64,000 bases of DNA, taken from NCBI GenBank assembly GCA_944350345.1, contig CALVOP010000003.1:22483-86482 (forward strand), written 5' to 3'. A model generated the notes under the pieces. It saw nothing but the letters and a program-made list of their open reading frames with translations. It did not search any database and had not been told where the DNA came from. This document shows positions 1,057 to 51,503 of the stretch, piece by piece. Within the stretch, counting starts at the first letter, position 1. Each line of letters begins with the position of its first letter. Source of the stretch: an uncultured Bacilli bacterium. Lineage in GTDB: Bacteria; Bacillota_I; Bacilli_A; RF39; UBA660. Position numbers and translations under genes: made by a program.

Positions 1057-1989
1057 ATGTTAAAAAAACTTGGACTAAGAAAACTTGCTGTTACCACTTC
1101 AGCTTTATTTATCATAGGGCTTATTTATCTATTTCCATCAAATAATGAAGAACTAAAAATAGAAAAAAATATAACCTATATAGAGCCAGATGAAATATAT
1201 GAAGTATATCTAGTTGATCAAAACGATTATGTAAGTATGGTAACATTACCTTTAGACTCAACAGAATTAATAGACATTTTAAAAGAAAAAATAGAATATT
1301 TAATAGTAGATGGCCAAAAACAAGAAGAAGTTCCTAATGGATTTAAACCAATTATTCCAGAAGGAACAGAAATATTAGATTTAAAAGTAGAAGAAAATAC
1401 TGTAACAATCAATTTTAATGAAAACATAAAAAACATAAGACAAGAAGACGAAGAAAAAATGATAGAAGCAATAGTATACACATTAACCAACGAAAGCAAC
1501 ATCAATAAAGTATACATCAAAATAAATGGAGAAACATTAGAAAGACTTCCTAACTCAAATAAACTATTACCAATACCACTAGACAGAAGTTATGGCATAA
1601 ATAAATTTTATGACTTTAATAGCTTATATGGTTTAACAAAAACTACAATTTATTACGTATCAAATAATGGCGATTTAACATATTATATACCTGTAACTAA
1701 AGTAACTAATGATGACAGAGAAAAAATAACTGTAATAATTGATGAGTTAAAAAGCAATGTAATATATCAAAGTAACTTAAGCAGTTATCTAAATGCTAAT
1801 GCAGAACTAGAAGAATATGAAATAATAGAAGATGCGATGCATTTAAGTTTTAATGATAAAATATTTGATTCACTAATAAACCAAAACATATTAGAAGAAG
1901 TAGAATATTCAATCAGCCTATCAGTAAAAGATAACTATGACGTTAACGAAGTAATATTTTATGTAAACGATAATTTAATAATGAATTAA
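1057..1989 (+). CDS. gerM: Spore germination protein GerM (two GerMN domains)
   Basis: VPNGFKPIIPEGT, EAIVYTLT, YYIPVT motifs. Confidence 0.8.
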   Translation: MLKKLGLRKLAVTTSALFIIGLIYLFPSNNEELKIEKNITYIEPDEIYEVYLVDQNDYVSMVTLPLDSTELIDILKEKIEYLIVDGQKQEEVPNGFKPIIPEGTEILDLKVEENTVTINFNENIKNIRQEDEEKMIEAIVYTLTNESNINKVYIKINGETLERLPNSNKLLPIPLDRSYGINKFYDFNSLYGLTKTTIYYVSNNGDLTYYIPVTKVTNDDREKITVIIDELKSNVIYQSNLSSYLNANAELEEYEIIEDAMHLSFNDKIFDSLINQNILEEVEYSISLSVKDNYDVNEVIFYVNDNLIMN

Positions 1990-44020: not shown

Positions 44021-47000
44021 GTGAAAAATAGATTATATTTAATAATTGTTTTAATAGTTTTGTGTTTAATTTTAAGTATATGTGGAACATATGCTTGTTT
44101 TAGTACAAGAATTGAAAGTACAGAGGGAAAAGTGACATTAGTCACAGATGAACTTAAGTTAATTTATACTGATACTTTAGGAATGAATGATTTATCAATA
44201 CAACCAGGTTGGAGTGTGACTAAAACATTTACAGTAGAAAATACAACAAATGAAGAAAAATATTATAAAATAGTATGGAAAAACTTAGTTAATACTTTTG
44301 TAAATATTGATAATTTAACAATAACAATTAATAGCACAAACGGTGGGGGAAAATTAAGTAAAAGCTCTGTTAAAAGCAGTAGTCTTCCAGGAAATTATGA
44401 CATAATTTCAAGCGTTGCTATTGCAGGAAAAACTATACAAGAGTATACAGTTACATTTGAATATGGAAATACAATTGTGGATCAAAGTGCAGATATGGGT
44501 AAAACATTTAGTGGAAGCATAGAAATAGAAGCATTAGAAAGCGAATACACGGAAGCATATTTGTATGCACAGGTGTTAGAAGATAACCCAAATGTAGAAA
44601 CAAGGACAGATTTTAGTACAATATTTACAGAGAGTAACAATGGAAACACAATATATAAAGCAAGTGGCCAAGACGGAAAAGACACATACTACTTTGCGGG
44701 ACAAGTAACAAATAATTACGTAAAATTTGCTGATAAGTACTGGAGGATAGTAAGAATAAACGAAGATAATAGTGTACGTCTAATATATGCAGGAACAAGC
44801 GCAACAGATACAGCAGCATTTATAAGTACAAGTCAAGTATATAACTCAAGCTATAATAATAGTGCATATGTAGGATATATGTATACGGCAAGCGAACAAT
44901 ATGGAACAGGAACAAATAGCTCAATAAAAACAACAGTAGATAACTGGTACACAAGTAACTTGAATAGTTACTCAGGATATATAAATAAGACAGCAATATA
45001 CTGTAACGATAGAACAGTGGCAAGTGGAACATGGAGTGCAACAGGAAGTACATTCTACTATGCTGCATATGCAAGATTATATATAAATAAAACACCAACG
45101 TTTGTATGTAGTAATGCAAATGACAAATTCACAGCAAGTACAAGTACGGGAAACGGAAAACTAACATATCCAATAGGACTAATAACAGCAGACGAAATAA
45201 GCTACGCAGGTGGATTGTGGGCAACAACTAACTTAAACTATTATATAGCCCAGAACGTATCGAGTGGAGCATCGTGGTGGTGGACAATGAGTCCGAGCTA
45301 CTGGAATGGCAACTACGCTCGCGTGTTCATCGTGGGTGGGTCTTCTTACACTGGCTACTTGAGCTACGACTGGGTCAGCAACACGTACGGCGTGCGTCCC
45401 GTAATTTCTCTGAAATCTTGTGTTCTCGCATCTGGAGGAGATGGAACGGCAAGTGATCCATATACAGTAAGTTTGACGGATGAATGTGCTAATGTAGAAA
45501 ATGAGATACTAGAAGAAAATACAGTAAGAGTAAGTGCAACAACAAATGATACAAGCATGGCTTCAGTCAATGCACCAAGTTCAGTAATAATAAATAGTGG
45601 AAGTTCACATACATTTACACTTACAGTAAAAGACGGATATGAATATGAAAGCGTAACAGGATGTAATGGGGTATTTGATACAAACACAAATAAATTAACA
45701 GTAAGCAATGTAACGAGTAATACAACATGTCAAGTTAACTTTAAATCAAACAACCATACAGTAAATATGAATGTAAGTGGTGGAACAATAAGTCCAACGA
45801 GCGCAACAGTGAGTCATGGCTCAAGTAAGACATTTACTGTAACAGCAAGCACAGGATATACAACAACAGGAGCAACAGTAAGTTGTACAAATGGAGTAAG
45901 TGGAAGTATAAGTGGAAGCACAGTAACAGTAAGTAATGTAACGAGCAATACAACATGTACAGTAACATTACCATCAAAGACATATACAGTAAGTGCAACA
46001 ACAAATGATACAAGTATGGCAACAGTAAATGCCCCTGCATCAGTATCAGTAAATAACGGAAGTTCACATACATTTATATTCACAGTAAAAACAGGATATG
46101 AGTATGAAAGTGTAAGTGGATGTAATGGGGTATTTGATACAAGCACAAATAAATTAACAGTAAGTAATGTAATAAGTGATACAACATGTCAGGTAAACTT
46201 CAAAGCCAAGACATATACAGTTACTATGAGTGGAAGCGGAGGAACAATAAGTCCAACGAGCGCAACAGTGAGTCATGGCTCAAGTAAGACATTTACTGTA
46301 ACAGCAAGCACAGGATATACAACAACAGGAGCAACAGTAAGTTGTACAAACGGAGTAAGTGGAAGTATAAGTGGAAGCACAGTAACAGTAAGTAATGTAA
46401 CAAGCAACACAACATGTCAAGTTAACTTTAAATTAAAGACATATACAGTAAGTGCAGCACCAAATAGTACAACATATGCAACAGTAAGTGCCCCAAGTTC
46501 TGTATCAGTAAGTCATGGGGGAAGTCATACATTCACATTTAGTGTAAAAACAGGATACCAATATAGTAGTTTAAGCAATTGTACTGGAGGAAGTTATAAT
46601 ACAAGCACAAATAAATTAACAGTAAGTAATGTAACAAGTAACAGGTCATGTACTGTAAACTTTAAAGCGCTAAGCCCATTATATGCGCAAGTGTTAGAAG
46701 ATAATCCAAATGTAAGTACAAGGAGTAGCTTTAGTAGTATATTTACAGCAAGTAATAATGGAAACACAATATATAAAGCAAGCGGGCAAAACAATAAAAC
46801 TACATATTATTTTGCAGGGTCTGTAACAAATAACTATGTAAAATTTGCTAATAAGTACTGGAGAATAGTAAGAATAAATGAAGATAATAGTGTTCGATTA
46901 ATATATGCAGGAACAAGTGCAACAGATACAGCTGCATTTATTAGTACGAGCCAAGCATATAACTCAAGTTATAATAATAGTGCATATGTGGGATATATGT

Positions 47001-48622
47001 ATACAAAAAGTCAGCAATATGGAACAGGGACGAATAGTCCAATAAAGACAGTATTAGATAACTGGTACACAAGTAACTTGAATAGTTATTCAGGGTATAT
47101 CAGTAAGACGGCAATATACTGTAACGATAGGACGGTAGGAAGTGGAAGCTGGAGTGCAACAGGAAGTACATTCTACTATGCTGCATATACAAGATTAAAT
47201 ACAAATAAAACACCAACATTTGCATGTAGTAATTCTAATGATAGATTTACATCGAGTACGACAACAGGAAACGGAAAGCTAACATATCCAATAGGACTAA
47301 TAACAGCAGATGAGATAAGTTACGCAGGGGGATTATACGGAACAAATAACTCAAACTATTATATATTCCAGAACGCATCGAGTGGAGCACGTTACTGGTG
47401 GACAATGAGTCCGGACCTCTGGAGTAGCCCCAACAGCACCGCTTTCGTGTTCATGGTGGGTGGGGCTACTCGCACTGGCTACTTGGACAGCAACTACGTC
47501 TACGTCACGTACGGCGTGCGTCCCGTAATTTCTCTTAAAGCTTGTGTTCTTGCCTCTGGAGGAAGCGGAACTGCAAGTGATCCATATACAGTAAGCTTGG
47601 CGGATGGGTGTGCTAATGTAGAAAATGAGATATTAGAAGAAAATACAGTAAGAGTAAGTGCAACAACAAATGATACAAGTATGGCAACAGTAAATGCTCC
47701 AAGTTCAGTATCAGTAAGTCATGGAGGAAGCCATAAATTTACATTTAGTGTAAAAACAGGATACGAATATAGTAGTTTAAGCAATTGTACAGGAGGAAGT
47801 TACAATAAAAATACAAACACATTAACAGTAAGTAATGTGACAAGTAACAGGTCATGTATTGTAAACTTTAAAGCAAAAACATATACAATAAGCTTTAATG
47901 CTAGAGGAGGAACAGGAGGGCCAACAACTGTAACAAAGACACATGGAGTGACTTTAACACTACCTACAACAAAACCGACAAGAAGTGGATACACATTTGT
48001 AGAGTGGAATACGAAATCAGATGGAACAGGTACAGCATATGCCCCAGGAGCATCATATACAGGAAATGCAAATGCGACATTATATGCAAGATGGTTAGGG
48101 GCAAATACTTATACAGTACAAGCAACAAGTACAAATGCAGGGTGGTATGATAAATGGACAAGTGACTGGTATAATAACTATTACGCAGCGGATCATGAAA
48201 GAGTTGGAATGTCATCAACAGGAATACCATATGCAATAAATATATTATTTGATCTCGAACCATACAAGAATAAAGAGATAACAAAAATACTATTATATAT
48301 ATATGTAATAGATGAAGCAACATGGCAATTTAGTATAGATCATAAATATAATAACACAGCGACAGGCAATTATAAGTCACAAGCGTGGGCAACAGTAGGA
48401 TATAATTATAGTGGAGTAGGATCTACAAAAAGGAAGTATGTATATAGAAGTGACACAGTAGAAGGATGGAATGCGATAGATTTAACGGAATATGGATTAC
48501 CAGATTATGGATACGTACTAGGCCCATATAGTTCAAATGTAACAAACTACTGGAGAATAAGTAGAACAGCAAGTAGTGGAGGGAAACCATACTTAGTTAT
48601 AACAGTAAAAGAAGAAGTATAA
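44021..48622 (+). CDS. Large secreted adhesin-like protein and putative DGR target: SipW-type signal/TasA-like N-terminus, two CLec-like domains, Cys-paired beta repeats, InlB B-repeat
   Basis: GTYACF signal; two copies of YWRIVRIN...YPIGLITADE...WWTMSP...GVRPVISLK; six ~75-aa repeats; YTISFNARGG...RSGYTFVEWNT...LYARW. Confidence 0.8.
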   Translation: MKNRLYLIIVLIVLCLILSICGTYACFSTRIESTEGKVTLVTDELKLIYTDTLGMNDLSIQPGWSVTKTFTVENTTNEEKYYKIVWKNLVNTFVNIDNLTITINSTNGGGKLSKSSVKSSSLPGNYDIISSVAIAGKTIQEYTVTFEYGNTIVDQSADMGKTFSGSIEIEALESEYTEAYLYAQVLEDNPNVETRTDFSTIFTESNNGNTIYKASGQDGKDTYYFAGQVTNNYVKFADKYWRIVRINEDNSVRLIYAGTSATDTAAFISTSQVYNSSYNNSAYVGYMYTASEQYGTGTNSSIKTTVDNWYTSNLNSYSGYINKTAIYCNDRTVASGTWSATGSTFYYAAYARLYINKTPTFVCSNANDKFTASTSTGNGKLTYPIGLITADEISYAGGLWATTNLNYYIAQNVSSGASWWWTMSPSYWNGNYARVFIVGGSSYTGYLSYDWVSNTYGVRPVISLKSCVLASGGDGTASDPYTVSLTDECANVENEILEENTVRVSATTNDTSMASVNAPSSVIINSGSSHTFTLTVKDGYEYESVTGCNGVFDTNTNKLTVSNVTSNTTCQVNFKSNNHTVNMNVSGGTISPTSATVSHGSSKTFTVTASTGYTTTGATVSCTNGVSGSISGSTVTVSNVTSNTTCTVTLPSKTYTVSATTNDTSMATVNAPASVSVNNGSSHTFIFTVKTGYEYESVSGCNGVFDTSTNKLTVSNVISDTTCQVNFKAKTYTVTMSGSGGTISPTSATVSHGSSKTFTVTASTGYTTTGATVSCTNGVSGSISGSTVTVSNVTSNTTCQVNFKLKTYTVSAAPNSTTYATVSAPSSVSVSHGGSHTFTFSVKTGYQYSSLSNCTGGSYNTSTNKLTVSNVTSNRSCTVNFKALSPLYAQVLEDNPNVSTRSSFSSIFTASNNGNTIYKASGQNNKTTYYFAGSVTNNYVKFANKYWRIVRINEDNSVRLIYAGTSATDTAAFISTSQAYNSSYNNSAYVGYMYTKSQQYGTGTNSPIKTVLDNWYTSNLNSYSGYISKTAIYCNDRTVGSGSWSATGSTFYYAAYTRLNTNKTPTFACSNSNDRFTSSTTTGNGKLTYPIGLITADEISYAGGLYGTNNSNYYIFQNASSGARYWWTMSPDLWSSPNSTAFVFMVGGATRTGYLDSNYVYVTYGVRPVISLKACVLASGGSGTASDPYTVSLADGCANVENEILEENTVRVSATTNDTSMATVNAPSSVSVSHGGSHKFTFSVKTGYEYSSLSNCTGGSYNKNTNTLTVSNVTSNRSCIVNFKAKTYTISFNARGGTGGPTTVTKTHGVTLTLPTTKPTRSGYTFVEWNTKSDGTGTAYAPGASYTGNANATLYARWLGANTYTVQATSTNAGWYDKWTSDWYNNYYAADHERVGMSSTGIPYAINILFDLEPYKNKEITKILLYIYVIDEATWQFSIDHKYNNTATGNYKSQAWATVGYNYSGVGSTKRKYVYRSDTVEGWNAIDLTEYGLPDYGYVLGPYSSNVTNYWRISRTASSGGKPYLVITVKEEV
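45248..45411 (+). repeat. Putative DGR variable repeat VR1
   Basis: GC-rich patch dominated by NNC codons, ending in GVRPVIS; differs from VR2 almost only at codon positions 1-2. Confidence 0.8.
45782..46417 (+). repeat. Near-identical ~177-bp intragenic duplication (45782-45958 and 46241-46417)
   Basis: GGAACAATAAGTCCAACGAGCGCAACAGTGAGTCATGGC... repeated with only a few substitutions. Confidence 0.9.
47366..47535 (+). repeat. Putative DGR variable repeat VR2
   Basis: Shares an identical 30-nt 3' block CACGTACGGCGTGCGTCCCGTAATTTCTCT with VR1; two extra NNC codons. Confidence 0.8.
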
Positions 48623-49041: not shown

Positions 49042-50010
49042 AAAGCGTATAGTTTAATAAATAATATAACAAGTAGCGAAATAAATAATGTAAGTATAAG
49101 AAGCAAACATAGTACAATAATTACAGCATGTAATAATGGAAACACAATATATAAAGCAAGCGGGCAAAACGGTAAAACAACATATTATTTTGCGGGAACT
49201 GTTACAAATAACTATGTAAAATTTGCTAATAAGTACTGGAGAATAGTAAGAATAAACGAAGATAATAGTGTACGTTTAATATACGCAGGGACAAGTGCAA
49301 CAGATACAGCAGGTTTTATAAGACTAGCCGCAGAATACAACACCAATTATAAGAATAGTTCGTATGTGGGATATATGTATACTGTAGGGGAACAACATGG
49401 AACAAGTACAAATAGTAATGTAAAAGCTATAGTAGATAATTGGTATGTAAGTAATCTAAATAGTTATGATAATTATATAAGTAAAACTGCAATATATTGT
49501 AATGACAGAACAGTAACAGAAGGTAGTTGGTTCGCAACTGGTTCAGAAGAAATGTTATATAGTGCGCACACAAGGTTTGATAAATATGCACAACCATCAT
49601 ATGTATGCAGCAATGCAAGTGATAGGTTTACAGTAAGTACGAGCACGGGTAATGGAAAACTAACGTATCCAATTGGATTAATAACTGCAGATGAGGCATA
49701 TTATGCTGGTGGCGGATTTTACAACAGGAATTCTAATTATTATTTAGTTCAAAATGCTTTAAATGCAGAGGCATCATGGTGGACAATGACACCGAATAAT
49801 TATTGGACACAAGGTAGCGGAGCAGGCGTATTTTATATAGGAGTATCTGAAATTGGAACTATAAGGGATGCGGGTGTATATCTTGATTATTTTTCAGTTA
49901 GACCTGTAATTTCGCTTAAATCATGTGTGACGGTATCTGGAGGAAATGGAACGGCAAGCAACCCATATACAGTAAATATTACTACTGCATGTTCAAATAG
50001 TGAAAATTAA
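49042..50010 (+). pseudogene. Start-less third copy of the CLec-like target domain
   Basis: Frame is open from 49042 and homologous from ~49087 (NVSIRS...NNGNTIYKASGQN...YWRIVRINEDNSVRLIY), but has no ATG/GTG/TTG until 49366 and no signal peptide. Confidence 0.7.
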
Positions 50011-50042
50011 ACAACTATGCTAATATTTATGGTAATTCCTTT

Positions 50043-50070
50043 CAAAAATCACATTTGAAAGTGATTTTTG
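50043..50070 (+). terminator. Hairpin downstream of the third domain copy
   Basis: CAAAAATCAC-N8-GTGATTTTTG. Confidence 0.6.
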
Positions 50071-50130
50071 CATTAAATTAAATTTTGGGACTATTTTAAT
50101 AAAAGGGAATTTTTTTGCTTGTTTCAACAA

Positions 50131-50243
50131 AGCAACCAAAATGTTAACAACGCTAACGTGTTTAACGTAAGTGATCACTAGCATTAGAAATTTGAACAAT
50201 GGCTAATTTAACAACACGAATAAAATGTGTCCTATAATATTCT
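50131..50243 (+). mobile_element. Degenerate DGR template repeat (TR)
   Basis: AAC AAC GCT AAC GTG TTT AAC GTA...AAT TTG AAC AAT GGC TAA TTT AAC AAC ACG AAT aligns with VR1/VR2, with A at most positions that vary between the VRs. Confidence 0.7.
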
Positions 50244-50421
50244 TTTAATGAATATCAAATTTATTACAACAATTATGGTACGATAAATTTTAATAAAATA
50301 AGTGAAGTTTTATATGAAAACTATGAGAAATAAAACATGTAATTGTCAATACTAATATCAAAACTAAAAATTTGTTAAAGTTAAAATCTGATATTTTAAA
50401 TCAGATTTTTTAGATATAAAA

Positions 50422-50495
50422 TTAGCACTTGCATATTGACATTGCTAATGCATAATATTATAATATGTTTAGCACTTGTGAATAATAAGTGCTAA
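50422..50495 (+). promoter_or_regulatory. Two CIRCE operators around a sigma-A promoter
   Basis: TTAGCACTT-N9-CATTGCTAA (50422-50448) and TTAGCACTT-N9-AAGTGCTAA (50469-50495); TTGACA(50436)-N17-TATAAT(50459). Confidence 0.92.
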
Positions 50496-50507
50496 AGGGG
50501 AGAGAAT

Positions 50508-51503
50508 ATGATTGGAGATAGACAAAAAAATATCTTGAAATCTATTGTTGAAGAGTACATTAAAACTGCTAGACCAGTTGGATCTAAAAGTTTATGTAAG
50601 AAGTTTAAGTGTTCTAGTGCTACTATTAGAAATGATATGCTTAATTTGGAGGAACTAGGGTACTTGGAAAAACAACATATCTCTTCTGGACGTATACCTT
50701 CTGAAAAGGGTTATAGATACTATGTAGACTATTTGATGGAACCAAAGAAAATAAGTGGCGAAGATATGTTAAAGCTTCAAACTATATTTTCTAATAATGA
50801 ACTTAATTTGAGTTCTGCCATTGAAAAGAGTCTTGAAATTATTAGTGATATTACAAATTACACGTCTGTTGTACTTGGTAAAGCTTCAAGTGATAATAAT
50901 TTACAAAAAGTTGAACTTATACCAATTACTGAAGAAACTCTTGTTGCAATTGTTATTACTGATAAAGGTATTGTTGAAAATAAACAAGTTAATTTATCTG
51001 AACGAGTTGATATGGGTGAAATTACTAAAACAAGTGAAATACTTAATAAAATGCTTGTTGGAACTCCTATTGATGAAGTAAGTAGTAAACTTGAATTTGA
51101 GATTAAACCTATTATTGGTAACTATGTTAAGAATTACGAAGTTTTATATAATGCATTTTATGAAGCATTCAGTAATTTTGCAACTAAAGAATCTGTTAAA
51201 TGGCGTGGTAAAGCTAATATATTAAAACAACCGGAATTTTCTAATGTCGACGATGTTAAAAACATTGTAAGTAAATTTGAAAGCAAAGAAGTAGTGAATA
51301 AAATTGAAGGTACAGACGATGAGGTTAAGATATATATTGGCAAAGAAAGTGAACTTGATGATAATGTTACTGTAATTAAAACTAAAATTAGACTTAATGG
51401 TGAAGATATGTCTATTGCTGTTATTGGACCTAAAAGGATGGAATACGGTAAAGTCGTAACAATGCTAGAGTATATTAAAGACAACTTAGAGAAGAAAGGA
51501 TAG
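50508..51503 (+). CDS. hrcA: Heat-inducible transcription repressor
   Basis: PVGSK, SSATIRNDM, HISSGRIPSEKGYRYYVD, IGPKRMEY. Confidence 0.97.
   Translation: MIGDRQKNILKSIVEEYIKTARPVGSKSLCKKFKCSSATIRNDMLNLEELGYLEKQHISSGRIPSEKGYRYYVDYLMEPKKISGEDMLKLQTIFSNNELNLSSAIEKSLEIISDITNYTSVVLGKASSDNNLQKVELIPITEETLVAIVITDKGIVENKQVNLSERVDMGEITKTSEILNKMLVGTPIDEVSSKLEFEIKPIIGNYVKNYEVLYNAFYEAFSNFATKESVKWRGKANILKQPEFSNVDDVKNIVSKFESKEVVNKIEGTDDEVKIYIGKESELDDNVTVIKTKIRLNGEDMSIAVIGPKRMEYGKVVTMLEYIKDNLEKKG

Follow-up and report, generated by a model that had tools for sequence, protein, structure and literature searches.

The AT-rich DNA in front of hrcA in this small Bacilli genome raises the question of whether it carries the remains of a DGR template, as a sequence-only reading of the locus had claimed, and, if it does, what has kept the variable regions (VRs) of the same genome in their present state. 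In a DGR, the RNA of a template repeat (TR) is turned by Avd and RT into cDNA with misincorporation opposite adenines, and the cDNA replaces the VR. We suggest that ~50087-50337 is very probably a pseudogenised orphan TR unit of such a system, consisting of leader, TR, and spacer. The window (the whole stretch of 64,000 nucleotides that was analysed, G000:C3:22483-86482) belongs to an 898-kb assembly with 27% GC, 33 contigs, no contig below 2.5 kb, and 90% estimated completeness, and the runs holding the stretch are mostly labelled chicken gut metagenome.

The fossil is located between a truncated copy of a surface-protein domain (49057-50010) and hrcA (50508-51503), and the features of the locus are collected in Table 1. 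Logan contigs of 4 runs from 4 studies bridged 49946-50520 with 0, 0, 3, and 9 differences (one of them reaches only 50448), and thus the junction is real and stable and no assembly artefact; one of the 4 bridging runs may be the source sample. The Logan contigs are short, break in repeats, and mix paralogues, and they were used only for this bridging. Rfam gave nothing relevant in 49900-50600. The hairpin behind the third domain copy was not called by the terminator scan because it has no G-C pairs. On the hrcA side, the operator arms are TTAGCACTT, followed by a 9-nt spacer and then the imperfect or exact complement, and we take these inverted repeats to be CIRCE-type operators. The hrcA operators and promoter are conserved in the related genomes G001, G002, and G003, and homology to these three resumes at 50422-50495.

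Table 1. Coordinates of the TR unit upstream of hrcA, of the related features in the window, and of the reference cassette in G004 (contig C63)
Feature	Position	Strand	Description
Fossil TR unit, leader	50087..50130	+	GGGACTATTTTAATAAAAGGG and following bases; homologous to the leaders of all three G004 TR units (alignment)
Fossil TR proper	50131..50243	+	Short length class like VR1; AAC/AAT at VR-variable codons
Decayed spacer homologue	50244..50337	+	Homologue of the ~90-nt spacer after each intact TR in G004, L036, and L037
VR1	45296..45403	+	GC-rich; domain copy 1 of the 1533-aa surface protein gene (44021-48622)
VR2	~47414..47527	+	Domain copy 2 of the same 1533-aa gene; 6 nt longer than VR1
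Third domain copy	49057..50010	+	Truncated at the 5' end, directly upstream of the fossil
AT-rich hairpin	50046..50072	+	After the stop codon of the third copy; read directly from the sequence
Two inverted-repeat operators flanking the hrcA promoter	50422..50495	+	Context, outside the fossil (repeat family D19)
Sigma-70 promoter for hrcA	50436-50464	+	12/12 match, TTGACA-17-TATAAT
G004 target gene end with VR	C63 1-150
G004 three tandem TR units	C63 290-1410; TRs ~345-468, 833-957, 1194-1314		Each with conserved leader and ~90-nt spacer

The 1533-aa ORF of the window has two copies of a ~320-aa domain. Several Ig-like repeats of ~76 aa, which form double units of 459 nt, are also present in this protein, as is a single Listeria-Bacteroides repeat at residues 1288-1356; its C-terminal domain matches no family. 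By tblastn, 15 copies of the ~320-aa domain were detected in the genome. A GC-rich patch (52-62% GC) is present in 11 of the 15, namely two on C3 (both in the window), four on C2, three on C10, and two on C16, and these 11 VRs show the classic DGR pattern of A-free invariant scaffold blocks alternating with copy-specific NNC codons; the remaining four copies (on C8, on C17, at C2:965, and the third copy in the window) are AT-richer. Within the domain, the VR takes up the C-terminal end, and its last residues are GVRPVISLK. The VR-bearing C-terminal ~55 residues match DUF6273 (PF19789) at E 6-8e-5, over profile positions 119-172 only and with 23.0-23.4 bits at a cut-off of 23.5. Neither Pfam nor NCBIfam gave a match to the complete domain, and the whole proteins match only the Listeria-Bacteroides repeat.

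Among the nine VRs with the canonical 3' end, 8 of 603 positions, counting synonymous ones, depart from the scaffold they have in common, and the two VRs with a deviant 3' end have 4 and 6 scaffold differences; 13 of the 18 scaffold differences across the VRs are GC>AT. At least three VR lengths (141, 144, and 147 nt as extracted) and one further +3 variant were found, so that one template cannot account for all VRs. VR1 and the VR at C2:114161-114301 have identical variable codons over the first ~100 nt and differ at their 3' ends, a pattern suggestive of gene conversion or a recent duplication rather than of retrohoming, and it follows that neither has been rewritten since that event. The 3' end of the C2 copy is the non-canonical GCGCCCTGTAATTTCATTG. 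The third copy in the window is an open frame with no ATG, GTG, or TTG start before 49366; it lacks the first ~25 domain residues and any signal sequence, and it is probably a gene fragment. Its VR-equivalent (~49780-49925) is AT-rich and not diversified, with 28/64 scaffold matches.

The unit upstream of hrcA and the TR units of a related cassette

The sequence-only reading had aligned 50131-50243 to VR1 with one 2-nt gap. The VR1 strings it quoted were found at 45296-45403, with 66/106 identical positions in the global alignment, and MAFFT placed the 2-nt deletion in the fossil scaffold after 50174. Of the 40 mismatches to VR1, 26 fall on an A of the fossil and the remaining 14 on other bases, including 9 with T in the fossil and C in the VR; the mismatches to VR2 divide into 27 at A and 16 at non-A. 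AAY codons had been noticed where the VRs differ, and this was borne out by the column counts: the fossil has A at 31/43 VR-variable columns vs 12/63 constant non-A columns (Fisher 4.7e-8). The other mismatches, described before as mostly C-to-T or G-to-A, are indeed largely of this kind, since 40/65 constant columns are matched and the 25 mismatches (VR to fossil) comprise G>A 10, C>T 9, T>C 2, G>T 2, and C>A 2. Taken together, the earlier description of the element was confirmed in every checkable point.

A template deduced from the VRs by setting the variable columns to A matched the fossil at E 0.0021 and 18.2 bits in the genome-wide nhmmer search, and the fossil was the only match outside the paralogous domain copies (next E at least 16). 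This stricter definition was used instead of a naive template with A at every varying column, which was of low complexity and gave hundreds of spurious matches, with the fossil absent among the C3 matches listed. No other sequence in the own genome matches the fossil.

We detected an intact cassette for comparison in G004, a genome of the same genus (contig C63, L011). Its three TR units are of different lengths, ~91% identical to one another, and located upstream of avd. The Avd-like gene matches bAvd and DivGenRetAVD at E ~1e-8, below the curated cut-offs; it is accompanied by the RT gene (373 aa, RVT_1 63.9 bits) and a MutS_I-like gene (135 aa), after which ecfA1, ecfA2, and ecfT are located. 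All 18 mismatches between TR1 and the adjacent VR fall on TR adenines, and the G004 cassette is therefore a valid intact reference; the differences between the hrcA-upstream fossil and the VRs, by the same measure, are not confined to its adenines. For two other G004 VRs, TR2 is the best-fitting template, and each of them has 2 mismatches to it at bases other than A. A second RT of G004 (C28) matches RVT_1 only. The G004 units also bear on the TAA of the fossil, which had been proposed to explain the odd tgg/tac pair of the VRs. That explanation is not needed: of the three intact G004 TRs, one has TGG at this codon and two have AAC, and two G>A changes would turn TGG into the TAA.

The BLAST match of the fossil to each of the three G004 units extends over 137 nt, past the TR and into the spacer (best E 1.3e-12, 72% identity), and in the multiple alignment ~50087-50337 is collinear with the whole TR unit, from leader through TR to spacer. 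No similarity was found between the fossil and the conserved coding flank of the VRs, TGGTGGACAATGAGTCC. This homology to genuine TR units, which takes in the non-templating leader and spacer as well, supports the interpretation of the element as a probable decayed DGR template repeat.

The upstream order is alike in the window and in G004, with the target gene stop, the hairpin, and then the leader of TR unit 1; the hairpin at 50046-50072 is collinear with the G004 hairpin between the target gene stop and TR unit 1. Since the fossil follows a 5'-truncated target copy and a hairpin in the G004 order, it appears to be the relic of a module made of a target and a TR unit. This block of truncated target plus TR unit could have come from a block duplication from the cassette or from a former local cassette.

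The place upstream of hrcA differs among the relatives. It is occupied by yceD-like and rpmF genes in G002, in G001, the closest species sampled, by a target gene whose VR is pristine, with the fossil lacking, and by a target gene with a different VR family in G003 (L014, C18 1160-1300). This VR family suggests that G003 has a separate template lineage. The G003 VR scaffold contains, for example, GTAGGGGACTCAACTGCTACGGGC and has the 3' end GGGGTGCGCTCAGTAGTT. The G001 target genes are at most 84% identical to those of the own genome, while hrcA is 96-98% identical, suggesting that the target arrays are reshuffled quickly; this low identity also precludes a comparison of the VRs orthologue by orthologue. 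The lack of the fossil at the G001 locus implies that the history of the element involves rearrangement.

The missing cassette and the state of the system

By established DGR knowledge, from which the mechanism is inferred here, a working unit, as intact in G004, would be transcribed, and an Avd/RT complex would copy the TR into cDNA, misincorporating opposite adenines; the cDNA would then replace the VR at the C-terminal tip of the DUF6273-like surface-protein domains. The copy before hrcA, which seems to have drifted to the AT-rich composition of the genome, would no longer be able to template. The 11 pristine VRs would go back to three or more other TR units that differ in length, none of which is in this assembly, just as avd, RT, and the MutS-like gene are not. 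That the VRs are mutually pristine and were written by other templates agrees with the counts, the nine canonical VRs having 8/603 scaffold differences vs 25/65 in the fossil.

The sequence-only reading had gone further and suggested that a remote TR and RT now serve the VRs, and for this part we found no counterpart in the assembly. In the 33 contigs (90% complete), no RT was detected (PF00078, 0 matches; tblastn with the G004 RT, E up to 0.01), the G004 Avd and MutS-like proteins had no tblastn match, and no intact TR was present, the VR profile finding only the 15 domain copies and the fossil. An intact TR-RT pair of the kind envisaged does exist in G004, within the same genus, and is absent from the own assembly. 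The exact-pattern scans for intact TRs returned only G004's own contig among the genome contigs and none among the metagenome contigs.

The Pfam RT search of 40 relatives gave DGR-size RTs in 15/24 other genomes of the family. Within the genus, RTs were found by this search in G004 and G003; the G003 RT has 646 aa and matches RVT_1 only, and no DGR-size RT was seen in the G003 assembly. The order avd, RT, MSL, ecfA1 is conserved in four further Bacilli MAG loci (L031, L032, L034, and L035), indicating that the site upstream of ecfA1 is the ancestral cassette home. This site is assembled through in the own genome (G000:C10:30501-30740), where a target gene with VR, its stop, and ~235 nt of AT-rich spacer are followed by ecfA1, and no remnant of TR, avd, RT, or MutS-like gene was detectable there. 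In G003, a target gene is located directly before ecfA. G005:C60 1-560 (L025) is a cassette scar, in which the pre-avd region and a shortened MutS-like gene are kept before ecfA1, whereas the counterpart of G004 1535-2999, which comprises avd and nearly all of RT, is lacking; no RT was found in the G005 genome. The scar in G005, a sister species, is a real avd-RT deletion.

The missing cassette parts, the empty site before ecfA1, and the G005 deletion together make a recent loss as likely as an unassembled cassette. We consider that the cassette was, somewhat probably, lost very recently. The low scaffold counts of the VRs (8/603 in the nine canonical ones, 4 and 6 in the two deviant ones) argue against a loss of long standing; the GC>AT share of 13/18 and the codons common to VR1 and the C2:114161 VR would fit a decay that is just setting in. 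It is conceivable, with a chance that we rate a little lower than even, that an active DGR persists and keeps the VRs pristine, its intact TR units and avd-RT being unassembled or unbinned on a repeat-broken small contig or another replicon. Such persistence would agree with the few scaffold differences of the nine VRs and with the incompleteness of an assembly that has no contig below 2.5 kb; tandem TR units are repeats, which short-read assemblers handle badly, and the G001 and G005 contigs break right at the cassette site, the G001 contig ending there. It is opposed by the ancestral site, which was assembled through and is empty, by the absence of RT, Avd, MutS-like gene, and intact TR from the assembly, and by the true deletion in G005. 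The VRs themselves also speak against it, because GC>AT changes already make up most of their scaffold differences and because VR1 and the C2:114161 VR still share their variable codons. The active-DGR reading, which corresponds to the remote TR and RT of the sequence-only reading, is about the present condition of the system and does not conflict with the interpretation of the hrcA-upstream unit as a fossil.

A further, unlikely possibility is that TR units are separable modules that duplicate or move with target-gene ends, and that the VRs are rewritten in trans by a retroelement of a phage, a plasmid, or an unbinned replicon, with no chromosomal RT. In that case the fossil would stand for an older module that has been abandoned, and the enzyme of the system would no longer be chromosomal.

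Decay of the unit and less probable readings

The orphan TR unit proposed here is strongly eroded. Of the columns on which the three G004 units are unanimous, 144/214 are retained in the fossil overall, with 23/35 in the leader and 58/87 in the spacer. Relative to the G004 consensus, GC>AT changes were counted at 46/88 G/C sites vs AT>GC at 10/126 A/T sites, and the unit has 25% GC vs 40-42% in the intact G004 units. These counts, with the homology to the intact G004 units, uphold the earlier proposal that the local TR has decayed under AT-biased mutation. The 2 nt missing from the fossil are present in every VR and intact TR, stops occur in the VR reading frames of the fossil (TAG 50179, TAG 50185, TAA 50204), and A is found at scaffold positions that are invariant across the VRs. 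The GC-rich 3' run, GGCGTGCGTCCCG in the VRs and intact TRs, is eroded to AAAATGTGTCCTA in the fossil; we presume this run to be the IMH of the VRs and the IMH* of the TRs, both in name and in role.

A decayed target-gene fragment, that is, a dead VR or a piece of a pseudogene and not a template, is a very improbable origin of the element. A truncated paralogue does lie in the region, and there are 15 domain copies in the genome, four of them AT-richer. However, the homology ends at the VR borders on the coding side, where the VR flank has no counterpart, and continues into the TR-specific leader and spacer, and the dead VR is ruled out by this distribution of homology. The base composition of the variable columns also argues against it, with A at 72% of them in the fossil vs 33-44% in the four non-diversified, AT-richer paralogues; the corresponding range in the 11 VRs is 23-47%.

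Equally improbable is a divergent TR of another DGR lineage that is still functional and serves an AT-rich VR. The ~35% divergence of the fossil from the G004 units is similar to that between distant intact units, and a weak promoter-like site (9/12) is located upstream, at 50055-50084. On the main reading too, part of the divergence of the fossil could be lineage divergence rather than decay: in the spacer, the fossil keeps 30/42 columns that are invariant in five intact units, which lies inside the range of the distant units L036 and L037, at 42/52 and 42/68 (leave-one-out). The spacer is predicted to fold no better than its shuffles (z -0.85 to +0.28 in three intact units and +0.61 in the fossil), and neither these folds nor the invariant-column counts separate decay from divergence. 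Against a functional TR stand the excess of GC>AT changes, the absence of any cognate sequence anywhere in the assembly and of RT, and the stops and scaffold A's, which would randomise or truncate any target.

The alignment to the VRs also stood up to shuffling. The local score of 50100-50270 is 69 vs VR1 and 54.5 vs VR2, and 2000 dinucleotide-preserving shuffles gave a mean of 17.6 (sd 2.4) and a maximum of 31 for VR1 and 33.5 for VR2, with z = 21. Chance similarity in AT-rich intergenic DNA, to which the insignificant hit of the 11-VR profile alone (genome-wide nhmmer, E 4.7, 6.0 bits) and the rank of A as the commonest base of the genome might have pointed, has a negligible probability and is refuted by the shuffles, 0/2000 of which reach the observed score, and by the match to independent TR units of another genome.

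Meaning of the relic and comparison with known systems

The fossil would be a DGR template relic of dated appearance. Set beside the G004 cassette with its three TRs, the G005 scar, and the empty site in the own genome, it suggests that a DGR has been dismantled stepwise within one genus, in very small gut Bacilli genomes whose target genes still have fresh-looking VRs. The three-unit TR array of G004 and this stepwise dismantling are the more interesting by-products of the analysis. Two warnings for annotation follow, namely that GC-rich VR islands can outlive their retroelement and that AT-biased decay can push a TR below ordinary search thresholds. We found no description of a decayed TR in the open-access literature text searched.

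The target domain is similar to the DUF6273 and C-type-lectin-like targets of DGRs in the PF19789 match of its VR-bearing C-terminal end. It differs in that this match is just under the family cut-off and that the ~320-aa domain has no family match.

The MutS-like accessory gene and the avd-RT-MSL "Architecture D" were described by Wu et al. 2018 (PMC5758913). The fossil resembles this architecture in its homology to the TR units of the G004 cassette, with its Avd-like, RVT_1, and MutS_I-like genes, in its AAY codons at VR-variable positions, and in its location downstream of a target-gene copy. In contrast, it adjoins no RT or avd, has mismatches beyond adenines, and shows both a frameshift and an eroded GC run at the 3' end; it represents a relic, not a functioning member of the avd-RT-MSL cassettes.

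For Stenotrophomonas sp. SKA14, a DGR with two TRs and six VRs is described (PMC6642488). Multiple TRs are the common feature, as G004 has three in tandem and the VRs of the own genome, in at least three length classes, need several templates. Unlike what is given for SKA14, the three G004 units each have their own leader and spacer and are located upstream of avd, and the window has one further, dead unit.

Treponema denticola isolates are described that keep DGR target genes after the loss of the core RT and TR (PMC4891356). The own genome likewise keeps VR target genes, with no RT or intact TR found, and by analogy with the Treponema denticola case its condition looks like a cassette loss within a genus. 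It differs from the isolates described there in retaining a recognisable decayed TR unit, away from the cassette site, and in belonging to a ~0.9-Mb gut Bacilli lineage with 11 VRs. Across these comparisons no new mechanism is revealed: the way in which DGRs work was known before, and what is added is one more member of the DGRs, in a decayed state.
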